Source of the DNA: Candidatus Aenigmatarchaeota archaeon | Lineage (GTDB): Archaea; Aenigmatarchaeota; Aenigmatarchaeia; Aenigmatarchaeales; DAIDAN01 | Reading direction: 5' to 3' | Assembly: GCA_036171435.1 (NCBI GenBank) | Contig: JAVHRC010000073.1 | Location: 1 to 43,399, forward strand | Length of the DNA: 43,399 nt | Translations under genes and position numbers: made by a program | Shown here: positions 10,056-38,745 of the stretch, piece by piece | How the letters are laid out: each line of letters opens with the position of its first letter | Position numbering within the stretch: the stretch's first letter is position 1 | The notes under the pieces: generated by a model | What the model was told of the DNA's origin: nothing | The model's database searches: none | The model's input: the letters and a program-made list of their open reading frames with translations, nothing else

Positions 10056-10201
10056 GGGTCTATAGTCTATCGGTAGGATGCTACCCTCACACGGTAGAGA
10101 GCCTGGTTCAATAAGCCCTTTTCTTTTTAATCCGAAAGTGCAAAAGAAAAGCGCTTGCGGAAAAGAAAATAAAGAAACTGAGATTCCGGGTAGACCCACC
10201 A
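10056..10201 (+). tRNA. tRNA-Val (anticodon CAC) with a 72-nt intron in the T-loop (59/60); CCA encoded
   Basis: Hand-folded. Acceptor GGGTCTA/TAGACCC, discriminator A. Anticodon arm CTACC-CTCACAC-GGTAG. T-stem CCTGG (10102-10106) / CCGGG (10186-10190). Spliced T-loop TTCAATT. Confidence 0.85.
10113..10184 (+). other. tRNA intron at 59/60 (hBH motif); diverged member of the shared intron family
   Basis: The T-stem forms the outer helix. The central 4-bp helix is TTCA (10107-10110) with TGAG (10179-10182). The 3-nt bulges are AT|A and AT|T. The core hairpin GCCCTTTTCTTTT/AAAAGAAAAGCGC and the purine-rich tail are homologous to 37068..37132 and 38531..38590. Confidence 0.75.
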
Positions 10202-14588: not shown

Positions 14589-15236
14589 TCACGGCTTGAA
14601 GAACGTCACGGAGAAATATCTGACCTTGTTTTCATCGTCAACGACAGCCCAGAGCATGTTCGCGCGGATGTTGTGCGCAAGGCGGACGGCGCGCGACATT
14701 TCCTGAAATCCGAAAACGAACTTTTTCGGCACAGCAAAAACAATCCATTTCGTGTGCTCGTGCGCCTGCTTCTGCCCGCGCTTCAGCGGCTTGACGCCGC
14801 GGTTGTATACGCGGAAATCGCAGCCGAACTTGAATCCGGTTCTTGTCGGCAAACCGCGCTCTCGCAAGTCCTTGTAGACAATGTATCTTTCCCAAAACCG
14901 CGGGTCAATCTCGGAGCAATATTTGTAAAATTCGCCGGATGCAATATTTTTTCCATTATCCAACAATTCAATTTTATTTTTCTCAAGCAAAAGCGCAGCC
15001 TCTATCAGCGCAAGTTCTAACCTATCCTCCTTCAGCTTCCCGTAAAAGTCATTCTCGAAAATATCTTTCGCTTCCTCCCTGTCCCAGACAAAAACCTTGT
15101 CTTCCGCGAGCCGCGCCTCTATCTTCTTTTGCGATTTTTGTTCTTCTTTTTGAAGTTCTGGAAGACGCACTTCCTCTTTCCTCTCTTTTTTCTGCTTGTT
15201 TTTCTTGGGCATAATCATCACATTATTTATTTTCAC
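14589..15236 (-). CDS. endA: tRNA-splicing endonuclease, catalytic-type (alpha-like) subunit with a Lys/Glu-rich N-terminal extension
   Basis: YKDLRERGLPTRTGFKFGCDFRVY...AHEHTKWIVF...AVRLAHNIR matches the EndA C-terminal catalytic domain, including the Tyr (FRVY) and His (EHTKW). The start is uncertain: GTG at 15236 overlaps the upstream stop, and ATGs at 15218/15212 are possible. Confidence 0.85.
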   Translation of the reverse strand: MKINNVMIMPKKNKQKKERKEEVRLPELQKEEQKSQKKIEARLAEDKVFVWDREEAKDIFENDFYGKLKEDRLELALIEAALLLEKNKIELLDNGKNIASGEFYKYCSEIDPRFWERYIVYKDLRERGLPTRTGFKFGCDFRVYNRGVKPLKRGQKQAHEHTKWIVFAVPKKFVFGFQEMSRAVRLAHNIRANMLWAVVDDENKVRYFSVTFFKP

Positions 15237-15754
15237 GGCTGGAGCTCGTTCAGAATATAATACGTGCAGTCCGAATCGTTGTCAACAATCGCCCATAACG
15301 CTATCGTCCTGATGTTCTGCGCGAGTTTTGTGGCGCGCTCGAGCAAATCAAGGCCGCAGGGATAGTCCTCGCCCGCAACGAAAACAATCCATTTCACGTT
15401 CTCGGCTTTTTCCGGCTTCGCGCCGCGCTCGTAAACGCGGAAGTCGCTTCCCTTGAAGCCTATCCGGACCGGCAGACCGCGCTCGCGCAGGTCCTTGTAA
15501 ACCGCGTAAAGCGATGCAAACCTCTTGTTCCTTGAGCAGAAATGGTAGAAATCCGCGAACTTCATTTTCTTTCCATCAAGAATTATGTCAAGCCTTCCGC
15601 GCTCCTGCAGAAGCAGTGCCTCCGCGAAACCAAGCTCAAGTTTCTCGTCTTTCAGATTTCCATACCAGCCCGAATCGAAAATATCCTTTGCCGCTGAAGC
15701 GTCCTCCACAACCACTTTATCATCAATCACTTTTCCTTCCGCCATTTTTATCAC
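15233..15754 (-). CDS. tRNA-splicing endonuclease paralog, structural-type (beta-like) subunit
   Basis: Same fold signature (YKDLRERGLPVRIGFKGSDFRVYERGAKP...VKWIVF...ATKLAQNIR), but the His-containing insert of the neighbouring paralog is absent. It is translationally coupled to 14589..15236. Confidence 0.8.
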   Translation of the reverse strand: MIKMAEGKVIDDKVVVEDASAAKDIFDSGWYGNLKDEKLELGFAEALLLQERGRLDIILDGKKMKFADFYHFCSRNKRFASLYAVYKDLRERGLPVRIGFKGSDFRVYERGAKPEKAENVKWIVFVAGEDYPCGLDLLERATKLAQNIRTIALWAIVDNDSDCTYYILNELQP

Positions 15755-32643: not shown

Positions 32644-35064
32644 TTATTGCGCAACATTCATCCTAATCTTCTCGCTAACGGAAATCTCATCGGCTTTTCC
32701 ATATCCTATCTCTTTCACTTTCATTGTTCCTTTTATGTCAGGCTCTACATACTTTAATTTCTCTTGCGTTTTCTTGTCGCAGTCGATAACAATCTTTTTC
32801 AATTCCGTATTCAGCGCGAGCTTGCGCGAGCTTTTGTACTGGCGAAGCGCAGAGATTACCTGCTTTGCCAGCTCGCCGATTTCCTCGCTTTTCTCGTCAA
32901 TCATTTTCTCGTCAAACTCTGGCCATTTTGAAATGTGAATGGAAACATCCTTTTCAGTTTTCCTGAAATAAATCTGGTAAAGCTCTTCCGTTATGTGGGG
33001 AATTATCGGCGCGAAAAGCTTCAGCAAAGCCAGCAAGGATGTGTAAAGAGTGTATTTTGCAGAATCATCGCCGCCCTCATACAATCTGTATTTTACCATT
33101 TCAAGATAATTGTCAGCAAACTCGCGCCAGAAAAATATTTCTGTTTCTGTTTTCGCGCGCCCGTACTCGCAGATTTTAAAATGCTCCGTGGAGAACTTAA
33201 CGAGTTTCGCCAATTTGCTTAACAGCCATTTATCCATTATTTTCAAATCCTTCGGTTTCTTGCCGCTCAAGTTCGGGCCAGCAAGCTTTGATGCATTCCA
33301 GAGCTTTGTCAAGAGCTTTTGCCCTGTCGCGACATCCTTCTCTTGGTATGGGAAATCCTCGCCCAAGTTGGCTGACGAGGACCAGAACCGAACAGCATCA
33401 GCGGAATATTTCTCCTTTACGGGAAGCGGCTCAACTATGTTGTCCTTTGACTTTGACATTTTCTTCCCATGCGGGTCAAGCCCGTGTCCTGAAATCATTA
33501 CAGTCTTCCACGGGACTTGATTTGTGTGCATGTAGCACTTTGCAATCGTGTAAAAAGTCCACGTCCTGATTATGTCATGCGCCTGCGGCCTCAGCGACAT
33601 TGGATATATTTTGTCCATTATCGAATCCTTCTCTTTCCATTTTCCGTTTATCAGCGGCGTGACAGATGACGTTGTCCATGTGTCCATCACATCCTTTTCA
33701 GGCTCGAAATCAGACGAGCCGCAGGAGCATTTCTTCTTTGGCTTTGAGTGAAGCGGGTCAACAGGCAAATCAGACTCGTCGGCAAGAATCGTCTCTCCGC
33801 ATTTTTTGCAAAACCAAACAGGAAAAGGAACGCCGAAAAATCTCTGCCTTGATATAAGCCAATCCGCATTCAATCCTTGAACCCATTGCTCATATCTTAC
33901 TTTCATATGGAAAGGATACCATGTTATCTGGTTTCCAAGCTCCAAAAACTTTTCCTTCATGTCAAGAATCTTTATGAACCATTGCACTGATATGAGAAAC
34001 TCGACTGGCGTTCCACATCGCTCATGGACGTTGACAACATGATTAATTTTCTCCTGCTTTTCAACCCTTCCCTCCTTCTTCAGGTCTTCGATAATCTGCT
34101 TTCTTGCTTCCTCCACTTTCAAGCCCTGATATTTTCCGGCATTCTCATTCAAAGTCCCGTTCTTTTTCATAACTTTGATTATCGGCAGGTTGTATTTTCT
34201 TACCCATTCAATATCATCAGCATCTCCGAATGTGCAATGATAGACGGCGCCTGTCCCGAATTCCATATCAACTGATTCGTTTGCATAAATCTGGACTTCC
34301 CTGTTGAAGAACGGTATTTTTGCTTTCTTTCCGATAAGCTTTTTATACCTTTCATCGTCAGGATGCACGAATATTGCAACACAAGCAGGCATGAGCTCAG
34401 GCCTCGTAGTGGCGATTGTTATGCTGTCTTTTCCAACATCAAATTTTATGTAACTGAAAAAAGATTCCTTCTCGCTGTCCTCAAGCTCTGCCTGAGCGAC
34501 TGCTGTCTGGCAAAGCGGGCACCATGTCACAGGTGCTTCTGCCCTGTAAATTCTTTTCTTGTTGTATAACTCCAAAAATGATTTTTGTGAAATTCTCTGG
34601 CTCAATGGATTGATTGTGCTGTAAAGCAAAGACCAGTCAACGGATATTCCCAGTTCTTTCCAAACTTTCCTGAAATCTTCCTCGCCTTTTTTCGTTTCTT
34701 GCAAACATAGCTTCACAAAATCCTGCCTTGGCATCGTGTTAGCCCTTACGTTCAGTTTCTTTTCCACATACCGCTCCGTTGGCAAGCCATTATCGTCAAA
34801 CCCCATAGGATAGAAAATATTGCATCCCATCATTCTCCAGAATCGCGCGACAAATTCTGCCTGGCTGTAGCTCATCGCATGCCCCATGTGAATCAGCCCG
34901 GATATTGTCGGGGGCGGCGTGTCTATCGAAAAAACCGGCTTCTTACTGTTTTTGTCAAAAGCGAATATCTTCTGCCCTTCCCAGAACTTCTGTATCCTCG
35001 GCTCGACCTCCTTCGGGTCATACCTCTCCGGTTTTTGTTTTTCTGAATTTTCCATAAAAATCAC
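32644..35064 (-). CDS. valS: Valyl-tRNA synthetase (class Ia aaRS)
   Basis: DTPPPTISGLIHMGHAMSY (HIGH region in the ValRS-type PPP context), WCPLCQTAVAQAE, and KMSKS (GKKMSKSKDN). The 806-aa size fits archaeal ValRS. LeuRS or IleRS is less likely, but I could not exclude them without an alignment. Confidence 0.85.
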   Translation of the reverse strand: MIFMENSEKQKPERYDPKEVEPRIQKFWEGQKIFAFDKNSKKPVFSIDTPPPTISGLIHMGHAMSYSQAEFVARFWRMMGCNIFYPMGFDDNGLPTERYVEKKLNVRANTMPRQDFVKLCLQETKKGEEDFRKVWKELGISVDWSLLYSTINPLSQRISQKSFLELYNKKRIYRAEAPVTWCPLCQTAVAQAELEDSEKESFFSYIKFDVGKDSITIATTRPELMPACVAIFVHPDDERYKKLIGKKAKIPFFNREVQIYANESVDMEFGTGAVYHCTFGDADDIEWVRKYNLPIIKVMKKNGTLNENAGKYQGLKVEEARKQIIEDLKKEGRVEKQEKINHVVNVHERCGTPVEFLISVQWFIKILDMKEKFLELGNQITWYPFHMKVRYEQWVQGLNADWLISRQRFFGVPFPVWFCKKCGETILADESDLPVDPLHSKPKKKCSCGSSDFEPEKDVMDTWTTSSVTPLINGKWKEKDSIMDKIYPMSLRPQAHDIIRTWTFYTIAKCYMHTNQVPWKTVMISGHGLDPHGKKMSKSKDNIVEPLPVKEKYSADAVRFWSSSANLGEDFPYQEKDVATGQKLLTKLWNASKLAGPNLSGKKPKDLKIMDKWLLSKLAKLVKFSTEHFKICEYGRAKTETEIFFWREFADNYLEMVKYRLYEGGDDSAKYTLYTSLLALLKLFAPIIPHITEELYQIYFRKTEKDVSIHISKWPEFDEKMIDEKSEEIGELAKQVISALRQYKSSRKLALNTELKKIVIDCDKKTQEKLKYVEPDIKGTMKVKEIGYGKADEISVSEKIRMNVAQ

Positions 35065-36874: not shown

Positions 36875-37067
36875 AAATTATTTTTGATTATTAATTACCT
36901 ATCTATTGGACAAATATGTATATAAAGTTAAGCGGCTGCTTTCAAGTGGCAACTTTTCGCAAGAAATTAAAGCATTAAATAGGTTTCAACCAAAATAAAA
37001 CTTACGCTGAGGTAGCCAAGCGGTACGGCGCTAGCCTGCTAAGCTAGTTCCCGCAAGGGATCGTGGG

Positions 37068-37132
37068 AGGCCTTTTTCTTTACAAAAGAAAAACGCCTGC
37101 GAAAAAGAAAGAATAAGAAAAAGGTCCGCGAA
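37068..37132 (+). other. tRNA-Ser intron 1 at 53/54 (HBh' motif); member of the shared intron family
   Basis: The central helix is CGTG (37062-37065) with CGCG (37127-37130). The 5' bulge is GG|A. The 9-bp inner helix is GGCCTTTTT (37069-37077) with AAAAAGGTC (37118-37126). The 3' cut falls 2 nt after the helix (AA|T), which puts TTCGAAA at the start of the next exon. Confidence 0.7.
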
Positions 37133-37138
37133 TTCGAA

Positions 37139-37225
37139 ATTGGGATAGGGAAAGAAATTTCCTTTGGTTGATGCTCTTCAAGAGGAAGAGGTTACCCAAA
37201 GGGGAAACCTTAGGTTTCCCCTGGT
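37139..37225 (+). other. tRNA-Ser second T-arm insertion (putative intron 2, boundaries approximate)
   Basis: It must be removed to join TTCGAA (37133-37138) to T60 plus CCCAT. The insert is highly structured, with helices 37149-37153/37158-37162, 37163-37167/37196-37200, 37174-37179/37185-37190 and 37201-37209/37213-37221. I could not find a complete BHB by hand. Confidence 0.45.
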
Positions 37226-37261
37226 TCCCATCCTCAGCGCCAATAATTTTAAAGTGGTTTC

Positions 37262-37591: not shown

Positions 37592-37706
37592 GGGCCGGTG
37601 GTCTAGTTCGGTTATGACGCCAAGTCAATACGCATGAATTTTTATGCGTGGACGCGGACCCCTTACAAGGTGGATACCGCAAGTTCAAATCTTGCCCGGC
37701 CCACCA
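37592..37706 (+). tRNA. tRNA-Val (anticodon UAC) with a 37-nt intron at 29/30; CCA encoded
   Basis: Hand-folded. Acceptor GGGCCGG/CCGGCCC, discriminator A. Intact T-arm GCAAG-TTCAAAT-CTTGC. The anticodon arm CCA|CC-CTTACAA-GGTGG forms only after removing 37623-37659. Confidence 0.85.
37623..37659 (+). other. tRNA intron at non-canonical position 29/30
   Basis: BHB-like fold. The inner helix is GTC (37624-37626) with GAC (37651-37653). The 5' bulge is CA|A. The central helix is CGC (37618-37620) with GCG (37654-37656) plus an A-G mismatch. The 3' bulge is AC|C. An internal hairpin ACGCAT/ATGCGT is also present. Confidence 0.7.
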
Positions 37707-38400: not shown

Positions 38401-38484
38401 ATTTTTTAATGATTATCTGTGTATTTATATTCTTTGCAGGAAAACTAATATTTGACTTGAAATATGGGCTGGTAGATCAACGGA

Positions 38485-38497
38485 AAACGATCGTTAA
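38485..38497 (+). other. 13-nt mini-intron in the D-loop of tRNA-Ala (hBH motif)
   Basis: The D-stem GATC (38475-38478) / GATC (38499-38502) is the outer helix. The central helix is AACG (38479-38482) with CGTT (38492-38495). The bulges are GA|A and AA|A. The spliced D-loop is AACGGAA. Confidence 0.55.
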
Positions 38498-38530
38498 AGA
38501 TCGCCACCTTGGCATGGTGGAGGTTCCGAG

Positions 38531-38590
38531 AGGCCTTTTTCTTTTCAAAAGAAAAACGCCTGCGAAAAAGAAAGAATAAAGGCTCGGGAG
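38531..38590 (+). other. tRNA-Ala intron at 53/54 (HBh' motif); member of the shared intron family
   Basis: The central helix is TCCG (38525-38528) with CGGG (38585-38588). The 5' bulge is AG|A. The inner helix is GGCCTTT (38532-38538) with AAAGGCT (38578-38584). The 3' cut is AG|T. The first 49 nt match 37068-37116 with one substitution. Confidence 0.7.
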
Positions 38591-38596
38591 TTCGAA

Positions 38597-38684
38597 AATG
38601 CACGAGAGAAAAACGCAAGTTCAACGGAACGGGGGTATCAGGAAAACCCTTGAACTGAAGGGGGCGGAGCCCCCTGCGGTTCGG
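38597..38684 (+). other. tRNA-Ala second T-arm insertion (putative intron, boundaries approximate)
   Basis: It lies between TTCGAA (38591-38596) and T60 plus CTCGG. The structured helices are 38603-38607/38685-38689, 38614-38616/38676-38678, 38618-38624/38650-38656 and 38660-38665/38669-38674. No complete BHB was found by hand. Confidence 0.45.
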
Positions 38685-38745
38685 TCTCGGCCAGTCCACC
38701 ACTTCTTCAAAAGCTATTTAAAACATAAAACAAAATCTTGATTCT

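Follow-up and report, generated by a model that had tools for sequence, protein, structure and literature searches.

The tRNA-Ser(GCU) gene

The stretch of DNA analysed here (hereafter the window; 43,399 nt) carries a class II tRNA layout on its plus strand at 37006..37242. In-silico splicing, ARAGORN, and comparison with orthologs identify it as a tRNA-Ser(GCU) gene of 237 nt, with an encoded CCA and a mature product of 85 nt. The acceptor stem is formed by GCTGAGG (37006-12) and CCTCAGC (37232-38) and is followed by G73 at 37239 and CCA at 37240-42. The D-stem has 3 bp, the anticodon arm CTAGC-CTGCTAA-GCTAG presents the anticodon GCU, and the variable arm reads CCC-GCAA-GGG. A distance of 159 nt separates the T-stem strands, GTGGG at 37063-67 and CCCAT at 37227-31, and between them, at 37133-38, is TTCGAA. 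Both observations had been made in the initial annotation and are confirmed in the sequence.

The gene divides into three exons and two inserts. Exon 1 (37006..37067, plus strand, as for all features of this gene) corresponds to tRNA positions 1-53, from the 5' strand of the acceptor stem to the 5' T-stem strand GTGGG, and also holds the D-arm, the anticodon arm, and the long variable arm. It is followed by intron 1 at 53/54 (37068..37132), which is 65 nt long and has a relaxed BHB motif of the HBh' form. The micro-exon TTCGAA (37133..37138) supplies T-loop positions 54-59; it is invariant among the split genes, and its flanks are variable. The second insert, at 59/60 (37139..37225; 87 nt), is a long form that we call type A, in which three hairpins are closed by a helix termed P. 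Exon 3 (37226..37242) starts with T60 and continues through the 3' T-stem strand CCCAT and the 3' acceptor strand to G73 and CCA.

When both inserts are cut out in silico (37068-37132 and 37139-37225), the remaining 85 nt are called as tRNA-Ser(gct) by ARAGORN. The program finds no tRNA in the raw gene, nor in the gene with intron 1 alone deleted, and it reports 0 tRNAs for the raw 43-kb window. The Rfam tRNA model aligns with just the 5' part of the gene, below threshold; at the gathering threshold, one of the window's four tRNA genes is matched. Near or within the locus Rfam returns nothing besides tRNA, and no group I or group II intron. Since there is no ribozyme match and the inserts are just 65 and 87 nt long, they do not qualify as introns of either group. 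A split or permuted tRNA gene was also considered and rejected, the three exons being colinear inside 237 nt.

The locus had been described before as a functional-looking tRNA-Ser(GCU) with G73, a variable arm, and CCA, and the ARAGORN call after splicing and the orthologs bear this out. The same is true of TTCGAA as a 6-nt exon (54-59) joined to T60-CCCAT (from 37226) over 87 nt, since the island and its junctions recur in seven other orthologs. The statement that TTCGAAAT is the sole TTCRANN motif has to be corrected. TTCAAGA at 37177 also matches and sits in a hairpin of the repeated insert element, not in the conserved island. An intact second tRNA-Ser(GCU) copy, raised by the initial annotation as a question about the genome, is absent from the 43,399-nt window, to which this answer applies. 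Taken together, the sequence makes it likely that this is a working gene for tRNA-Ser(GCU) whose T-arm is encoded in three pieces, the first ending with G53, the second comprising U54-A59, and the third starting with U60.

Orthologs and empty sites

Orthologs were obtained by scanning metagenomes with the 5' part of the tRNA and from contigs carrying homologs of the syntenic downstream DUF7768 gene; individual lineages are given L numbers below. The tRNA-Ser gene is present in more than 10 independent assemblies (JGI, NCBI, ENA, and Logan). A split T-arm is found in eight distinct orthologous genes, including that of the window, from independent metagenome and MAG assemblies. The mature 85-nt sequence is identical in seven of these eight, and the remaining one (L071) differs by a single D-loop substitution. 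Across the eight lineages the exons are 99-100% identical. Intron 1 is 26-79% identical to that of the window and ranges from 65 to 225 nt, and the site-2 insert (at 59/60) measures 13, 78, 83, 87, or 88 nt. TTCGAA is invariant in 8/8 split tRNA-Ser and 5/5 split tRNA-Ala genes.

Relatives with empty sites serve as controls. The L057 ortholog is without any intron and has the T-arm CTGGG-TTCGAAT-CCCAG, and the L063 tRNA-Ala has the uninterrupted T-arm CCGAG-TTCGAAT-CTCGG; in both genes the T-loop TTCGAAT begins with the same 6 nt as make up the window micro-exon. The L058 ortholog shares the acceptor and has introns elsewhere, and its T-arm, GTGGG-TTCGATT-CCCAT, is uninterrupted. In L055, L056, and L062 there is one intron only, inside the T-loop. 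At the other extreme, the L072 tRNA-Ser is interrupted at four sites, and deleting 50, 47, 84, and 83 nt from it yields exactly the mature tRNA of the window. Judged by these alignments, strong purifying selection acts on the micro-exon as well as on the remaining exons.

The intron at 53/54

The BHB criterion used here is a 4-bp central helix (H) with each cut 2 nt 3' of a helix strand; the hBH and HBh' forms were accepted as relaxed. In intron 1 of tRNA-Ser(GCU), the central helix consists of C37062-G37130, G37063-C37129, U37064.G37128, and G37065-C37127. With the cut marked by a slash, the bulges are G37066 G37067/A37068 on the 5' side and A37131 A37132/T37133 on the 3' side. The inner helix has 12 bp, including one G.U, between 37069-80 and 37115-26. 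There is no outer helix, so that the motif is the relaxed HBh' form. The initial annotation had proposed this form, with cuts right after G53 and right before T54, and its 4-bp central helix and bulge are found again; the inner helix is longer than the 9 bp it gave.

The central helix is 4/4 in all 12 tRNA-Ser and tRNA-Ala genes (12/12), in which the cuts are fixed by the exons, and the inner helix is long in each. The common pattern is CGUG-GG/N on the 5' side and CGCG (or CACG)-AN/U on the 3' side. In tRNA-Ser, CGUG is paired with CGCG or CACG, and in L054 the U.G pair of the helix is changed to U-A. In tRNA-Ala, exon nucleotides 48-51 are UCCG and are matched by the intron strand CGGG. The intron strand of the helix thus follows the host exon, which is the behaviour expected of a splicing motif. 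By its sequence, intron 1 is clearly a relaxed BHB intron of the HBh' form at 53/54, with a central helix built from exon nucleotides 48-51. The intron has a core, AAAAACGCCTGCGAAAAAG, at 37089-37107, copies of which occur at 10147 and 38552.

The insert at 59/60

In L054, L063, and L070 the site-2 insert is a mini-intron of 13 nt, UUCGAA/A(U)UGGGA(A)GAAAA/UCCCAU. In the 59/60 register its outer helix is the 5-bp T-stem, and its central helix has the pairs U54-A, U55-A, and C56-G and a mismatch in the fourth position. The 3' bulge has the form NN/U60. The arrangement fits a one-step 59/60 hBH motif with three of four central pairs and an outer helix of five, and AGAA-NN/U is also how the one T-loop intron ends in L055 and in L062. 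This motif would form only once intron 1 is gone, because G49-G53 must adjoin U54. The site-2 intron of these relatives is, by motif and length, a 13-nt hBH/BHL mini-intron.

The insert of the window has no such motif. When it is treated as a single intron, UUCG faces CCUG and the central helix is reduced to 2/4; the one-step 59/60 motif fails in 10/10 long forms of tRNA-Ser and tRNA-Ala, and no strict BHB was found for the second insert in any register. It probably corresponds to a mini-intron of the 13-nt type with an extra repeated element of ~72 nt, and it would be the position of this block inside the mini-intron that leaves the window without a one-step splice motif. The closely related L070 (short) and L060 (long) differ by a block that is placed just before U60. 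What sets the 59/60 register itself are the orthologs with the short form and the mature T-loop UUCGAAU, which is the same as that of the intron-less L057 gene.

Helix P and a candidate nested intron

All split genes have, directly downstream of the micro-exon, an intron segment of 5-6 nt that pairs with U60 and the 3' strand of the T-stem. In the window this segment, P5' (TGGGA), lies at 37141..37145 on the plus strand and pairs with 37226-30. Helix P is matched to its host, with (A)UGGGA/UCCCA(U) in tRNA-Ser and CGAGA/UCUCG in tRNA-Ala, and is found with both type A and type B inserts. As two base pairs differ on both sides between the Ser and Ala hosts, the helix is seemingly under selection. 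The predicted MFE fold of the precursor is dominated by P, which closes the three-hairpin junction. P5' is followed by AGGG (type A) or GAA (type B), complementary to the 4 (or 3) nt ahead of the bulge before U60. The bulge lies directly 5' of U60, has 2-3 nt, and is variable (GGU, GGA, UGG, GG, CG). With P as the outer helix, this pairing of AGGG or GAA gives an hBH(B)-like motif.

A relaxed motif search, combined with shuffling and folding, points to a candidate nested intron of 72 nt at 37153..37224 on the plus strand. Its central helix would be formed by 37147-50 (AGGG) and 37219-22 (CCCT), with bulges at 37151-53 and 37223-25, an inner helix between 37154-59 and 37213-18 (up to 7 bp among type A copies), and P as outer helix. 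The type A motif reads AGGG-AA/A on the 5' side and CCCU-GG/U on the 3' side. Cutting at these positions would leave a 15-nt mini-intron (AUUGGGAUAGGGAA+U) in which GGGA-AU/U faces UUCG with three pairs and a final mismatch, as in the short forms.

The score of the nested motif is matched by 15/400 shuffles for the window, 0/400 for L071, 3/400 for L072, and 5/400 for the L061 tRNA-Ala, and in 4/5 genes it exceeds 96-100% of shuffles. Under the relaxed rules, 14-40% of shuffled inserts also yield some nested path. The nested conformer costs between 0 and +6.6 kcal/mol relative to the MFE (+3.9 for the window) and is the unconstrained MFE itself in L072. A type A copy at 37/38 of the L071 tRNA-Ala, a canonical site at which the anticodon loop dictates the cuts, forms a BHB at a comparable cost of +4.7 kcal/mol and uses the same 3' strand. 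The helices of the inner motif are invariant among the copies and therefore offer no covariation for it. Covariation backs the competing local hairpins, namely hairpin C (GGGGAAACC/GGUUUCCCC vs GGGGAAAAC/GUUUUCCCC) and, in L072, hairpin A. For the type B insert (L060 tRNA-Ser and the tRNA-Ala of the window) no nested candidate exceeds the thresholds; one constructed by hand has 2-nt bulges and a 3-bp helix, and the outer intron is left 1 nt too long.

Other boundaries were tried and rejected. A 'mirror' BHB with a central UGGG/CCCA helix would have its bulges 5' of the strands, whereas real bulges lie 3' of the strand (as in the canonical 37/38 motif), and it gives T-loops of 6, 8, and 10 nt. 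An AGAAAU/U look-alike at 37153-59, a TTCC repeat (37159-62 and 37225-28), and a 37/38-type UUGG/CUGG helix yield either central helices of 2/4 or a T-loop that is not 7 nt. A search with strict geometry returned one unrelated, weaker nested candidate in the window and none in L060, and a naive all-pairs BHB scan was uninformative, being swamped by A/U-rich tracts. Inspection by eye for a C/D-box sRNA found a partial C-box-like UGAUG in the insert and no D box.

We propose that the extra element separates the central-helix strand of the mini-intron from its 3' splice site. The element would be excised first, as a nested intron (~37153-37224) whose outer helix is P (37141-45 and 37226-30) and whose central helix is AGGG/CCCT, and the residual 15-nt mini-intron would be removed last to give the T-loop UUCGAAU. 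The motif and its shuffle statistics give this two-step removal a little less than an even chance. The fuller scheme, in which the T-arm would mature through three ordered cut-and-ligate cycles and a mobile ~72-nt BHB intron would reside within a 13-15-nt mini-intron under a host-tuned P, is put forward more tentatively.

Related introns in tRNA-Ala(GGC) and tRNA-Val(CAC)

The same design is found in the tRNA-Ala(GGC) gene of the window (38466..38701, plus strand), which ARAGORN calls as tRNA-Ala(ggc) after three removals. These are an intron at 53/54 (38531-38590) of the same family as Ser intron 1, an 88-nt 'type B' insert at site 2 (38597-38684), homologous to the L060 tRNA-Ser insert, and a D-loop insert of ~10 nt (~38484-93). 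The micro-exon TTCGAA lies at 38591-96, and exon 3 starts with T60 at 38685. The tRNA-Val(CAC) gene (10056-10201) has a 59/60 intron that contains the intron 1 core (at 10147) and forms a proper hBH beside the T-stem, with UUCA/UGAG pairing 4/4.

Copies of the type A element are located at 59/60 in tRNA-Ser of L061, L071, and L072 and in tRNA-Ala of L061, L064, and L071, the last of which also has the copy at 37/38; its T-arm contains the second insert only. The type B element is shared by the L060 tRNA-Ser and the tRNA-Ala of the window. An extra 48-nt block in the L070 tRNA-Ala shows no convincing BHB and probably does no more than lengthen the linker before P5'. Introns related in sequence are thus spread over several tRNAs and positions, as reported for Thermoproteales (PMC4033280), and in this DPANN lineage the families seem to be mobile from one tRNA gene to another.

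The splicing endonuclease and the host

Two adjacent ORFs on the minus strand, overlapping by 4 nt, both belong to the EndA family, as had been suggested for the pair at 14589..15754. The first (14589..15236; 215 aa) is an alpha-like subunit whose nearest match is the alpha subunit of N. equitans (3IEY, 4e-31). The two share a Lys-rich insertion, GVKPLKRGQKQAHEH, just before the catalytic His, which is missing from the M. kandleri endonuclease. The Tyr and His are present in the alpha-like subunit, and the column of the catalytic Lys is occupied by Ala (AHNIRAN vs AHSTRKK). The second protein (15233..15754; 173 aa) does not conserve the catalytic His and Lys and therefore looks like a structural beta subunit. 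The DPANN insertion has been named 'L3' and associated with more tRNA gene disruption (Kaneta et al. 2018, PMC5829648). The ValRS of the window (32644-35064, minus strand) is 89% identical to that of a Candidatus Aenigmatarchaeota MAG (DAIDAN01) and 53% identical to that of another, which places the window in a DPANN archaeon.

We propose that the tRNA-Ser(GCU) precursor is transcribed as one RNA and would be matured by the EndA pair (14589-15754) together with an RNA ligase. To the explanation as a whole, in which a three-exon T-arm would be matured by EndA with nested removal at site 2, we assign a probability of about 0.78 from the genomic evidence.

Alternative explanations

The three-exon T-arm could also be kept with a simpler route, in which the 87-nt insert is removed in one step by an EndA of broad specificity and there is no nested intron; the enzyme might, for example, read the 2-3-nt bulge beside P on the 3' side and an unstructured 5' site. 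Relaxed motifs are frequent in this genome, the covariation favours three local hairpins plus P (that is, the MFE fold) over a long-range inner helix, type B inserts lack an acceptable nested path, and weak nested paths are frequent in shuffles. On the other hand, every known EndA cut pair is related by a 4-bp central helix, which is the established BHB geometry (PMC3239211). The 59/60 intron of tRNA-Val(CAC) and all the short forms have a proper central helix, so the organism appears to follow the normal rule, and a one-step route leaves unexplained why AGGG or GAA after P5' is constantly complementary to the 4 nt before the bulge. On balance we consider one-step removal unlikely. A shift of the second junction is less probable still. 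ARAGORN calls tRNA-Ser for all three products, so 58/59 (TTCGA; T-loop UUCGAUU) and 60/61 (TTCGAAA; T-loop UUCGAAA) both give an acceptable tRNA. The L058 T-loop is TTCGATT, as 58/59 would produce, 60/61 has 3/4 central pairs in the window, and the bulge beside P would set a cut before T37225. But three central pairs together with the 5-bp T-stem as outer helix occur in the short forms at 59/60 only, and the flanking helices are absent at 60/61. U60 is preceded by A in L061 and L071 and by G in L072, so that 58/59 would make the T-loops differ in otherwise identical tRNAs. Either shift is therefore a poor candidate next to the 59/60 junction.

A reading of the gene as an artefact of assembly or as a pseudogene in decay, with inserts that are never removed, would agree with its being missed by standard detectors and with a second insert that has no clean splice motif. 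The recovery of the gene from more than 10 independent assemblies, the compensatory changes in the central helix of intron 1 and in helix P, and the same design in tRNA-Ala all speak against it, as do exons that are 99-100% identical beside diverged introns of variable length. It is this constancy of the mature exons, set against introns that change in length and sequence, that leads us to rule out such a reading for practical purposes.

Comparison with known systems

The closest known case is the ARMAN-2 pre-tRNA-Pro(GGG), in which introns at 53/54 and 59/60 enclose an exon of 6 nt (Fujishima et al. 2011, NAR 39:9695, PMC3239211, Fig. 1C). The two systems agree in both insertion positions and in the 6-nt exon 54-59. 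ARMAN-2 likewise belongs to DPANN, many of its tRNA genes are disrupted, and its endonuclease is of a non-alpha4 type with a Lys-rich insertion in the C-terminal domain. The present genes differ in belonging to Aenigmatarchaeota and in being tRNA-Ser and tRNA-Ala. In contrast to the ARMAN-2 tRNA-Pro, described as strict hBHBh', intron 1 is HBh' and the 59/60 motif is hBH at best; in the window the extra element of the second intron abolishes the one-step motif. The enzyme is a two-gene alpha/beta pair here and the three-unit epsilon2 in ARMAN-2. For the ARMAN-2 pre-tRNA-Cys(GCA), in vitro cleavage has been reported at a 13-nt 59/60 intron of the hBH/BHL type (PMC3239211, Fig. 4). It is equalled in length (13 nt), position, and motif type by the short site-2 introns that L054, L063, and L070 show in their sequence, whereas the window has an 87-nt composite form.

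Because ARMAN-2 pre-tRNA-Pro(GGG) was published with this exact arrangement, the layout is not of a new kind. The initial annotation, which took a micro-exon flanked by introns on both sides within a single arm to be undescribed, was largely right on the anatomy, wrong on the novelty, and incomplete on the second insert.

Ordered, 'nested' BHB formation in archaea has been linked to the multiple introns of Thermoproteales (Sugahara 2007/2008), according to PMC8450103 and PMC3728597. Relaxed motifs and a heteromeric endonuclease are common to that case and the present one; the organisms there are Crenarchaeota, and a maximum of three introns per gene is stated. Unlike the nested introns in those accounts, the inner intron proposed here would lie inside another intron, and its outer helix would be P, an intron/exon pairing matched to the host. 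Transposition of tRNA introns in Thermoproteales (Fujishima et al. 2010, MBE 27:2233), as cited in PMC4033280, likewise involves related introns in different tRNA species and positions. In contrast to that case, the present lineage is DPANN; the intron 1 core occupies site 53/54 of tRNA-Ser and tRNA-Ala and site 59/60 of tRNA-Val(CAC), and the type A element is at 59/60 of tRNA-Ser and at 59/60 and 37/38 of tRNA-Ala. Reviews give up to three introns per archaeal tRNA gene (PMC4033280, PMC8450103). In the literature searched, tRNA introns are tied to Aenigmarchaeota by a passing mention only.

Implications

The combination of introns at 53/54 and 59/60 around a micro-exon is already known from ARMAN-2, and is found here in a new phylum, in new tRNAs, with relaxed motifs and an alpha/beta endonuclease. 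The micro-exon design now extends from ARMAN-2 to Aenigmatarchaeota and to two further tRNA species. The host-matched helix P, the intron-inside-intron arrangement, and the insertion sites per gene in relatives are possibly new. Through the dispersed families, the L072 tRNA-Ser reaches four sites (five introns if the nesting is real), which is above the stated three.

Standard tRNA finders miss the true structure of all four tRNA genes in the 43-kb window. A published survey had suspected hidden, interrupted tRNAs in DPANN (PMC5829648), and where tRNAs seem to be lacking from a DPANN genome, the genes are probably present but heavily interrupted. One site with short, long, and empty alleles, together with a host-matched helix, makes a natural test set for the order in which a broad-specificity endonuclease cuts. 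If the nested step is true, the tRNA-Ser(GCU) gene would be a clean case of obligatory three-step splicing in one tRNA arm.

Interrupted tRNA genes in the window

The twice-split T-arm of the tRNA-Ser(GCU) gene is also found in a second gene of the window, a tRNA-Ala(GGC) at 38466–38701 on the plus strand. It carries an intron at 53/54 (38531–38590), the micro-exon TTCGAA (38591–38596), an 88-nt insert after the micro-exon (38597–38684), and a D-loop insert of ~10 nt (~38484–38493), all on the plus strand. The gene at 38466–38701 was reported by no detector, and ARAGORN calls it as tRNA-Ala(ggc) only when all three inserts are taken out. In the tRNA-Ala of two related loci, L064 and L068, from assemblies that are otherwise identical, the intron-1/micro-exon junction differs by one G (GGGAG|TTCGAA in L068 vs. 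GGGA|TTCGAA in L064). This difference would make the 3' bulge one nucleotide shorter; it may reflect true sequence variation or a mistake in assembly.

The tRNA-Val(CAC) gene (10056–10201, plus strand) contains a 72-nt intron at 59/60 (10113–10184) that shares its core with tRNA-Ser intron 1 (AAAAGCGCTTGCGGAAAAG at 10147). This intron forms a clean hBH motif (UUCA/UGAG, 4/4) in which the T-stem is the outer helix, and the Rfam match (10056–10119) covers only the portion of the gene 5' of the intron. The tRNA-Val(UAC) gene (37592–37706, plus strand) has a 37-nt anticodon-stem intron at ~29/30 (37623–37659), a site which is also filled in the tRNA-Ser of the related loci L070, L071, and L072. 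Each of the window's four tRNA genes has an interruption outside the canonical position.

By eye, TATA-like AT-rich boxes lie about 25–40 nt upstream of the tRNA-Ser gene (TTAAATA, 36975–36981) and the tRNA-Ala gene (TTTATATT, about 38424–38431). Judged from these boxes, the arrangement fits the two genes being separate archaeal transcription units.

Number and growth of inserts

The tRNA-Ser(GCU) ortholog in L072 (1781–2129), on contig DAIDAN010000038.1 of the MAG nearest to the window, has four insertion sites: the D-loop (50 nt), the anticodon stem at 29/30 (47 nt), 53/54 (84 nt), and 59/60 (83 nt). Once these four inserts are removed, the sequence is identical to the mature tRNA of the window. 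Reviews give three introns as the maximum for an archaeal tRNA gene (PMC4033280, PMC8450103). The tRNA-Ser genes of L070 and L071 have three insertion sites each. The L071 tRNA-Ala, as read from its sequence, appears to have four (D-loop, 37/38, variable region, and 59/60); detailed examination covered the 37/38 and 59/60 sites only.

Splicing endonuclease

The EndA gene pair (14589–15754, minus strand) consists of a beta-like gene followed by an alpha-like gene with a 4-nt overlap. In NCBIfam, the two genes correspond to the two separate halves of PRK09300, a model of the two-unit (alpha'2-type) enzyme. According to published surveys, the EndA types of DPANN archaea are alpha4, (alpha-beta)2, and epsilon2, and the absence of alpha'2 is noted (PMC5829648). 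Two catalytic residues are retained in the alpha-like subunit (14589–15236, minus strand): the Tyr (in FRVY) and the His (in EHTKW). Where M. jannaschii (K156) and N. equitans have the catalytic Lys, its aligned residue is Ala (AHNIRAN vs. AHSTRKK). The role of this Lys may be taken over by a different residue, perhaps one in the Lys-rich loop, or else a separate catalytic subunit may be encoded elsewhere.

Expansion of the introns

The introns in L060 (385–772, minus strand of the locus), L061, and L070 are themselves read as gaining further blocks. The window's intron 1 measures 65 nt, whereas its length is 116 nt in L061 and reaches 225 nt in L060, and a hairpin, CGAAAACGAAGTTTTCG, recurs within the extra segments. 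In L060, the second insert ends 3' in a sequence (CCCCCTGCGGTTCGGT) that resembles a degraded version of the junction between intron 1 and the micro-exon (CCCGCGAGTTCGAAT).
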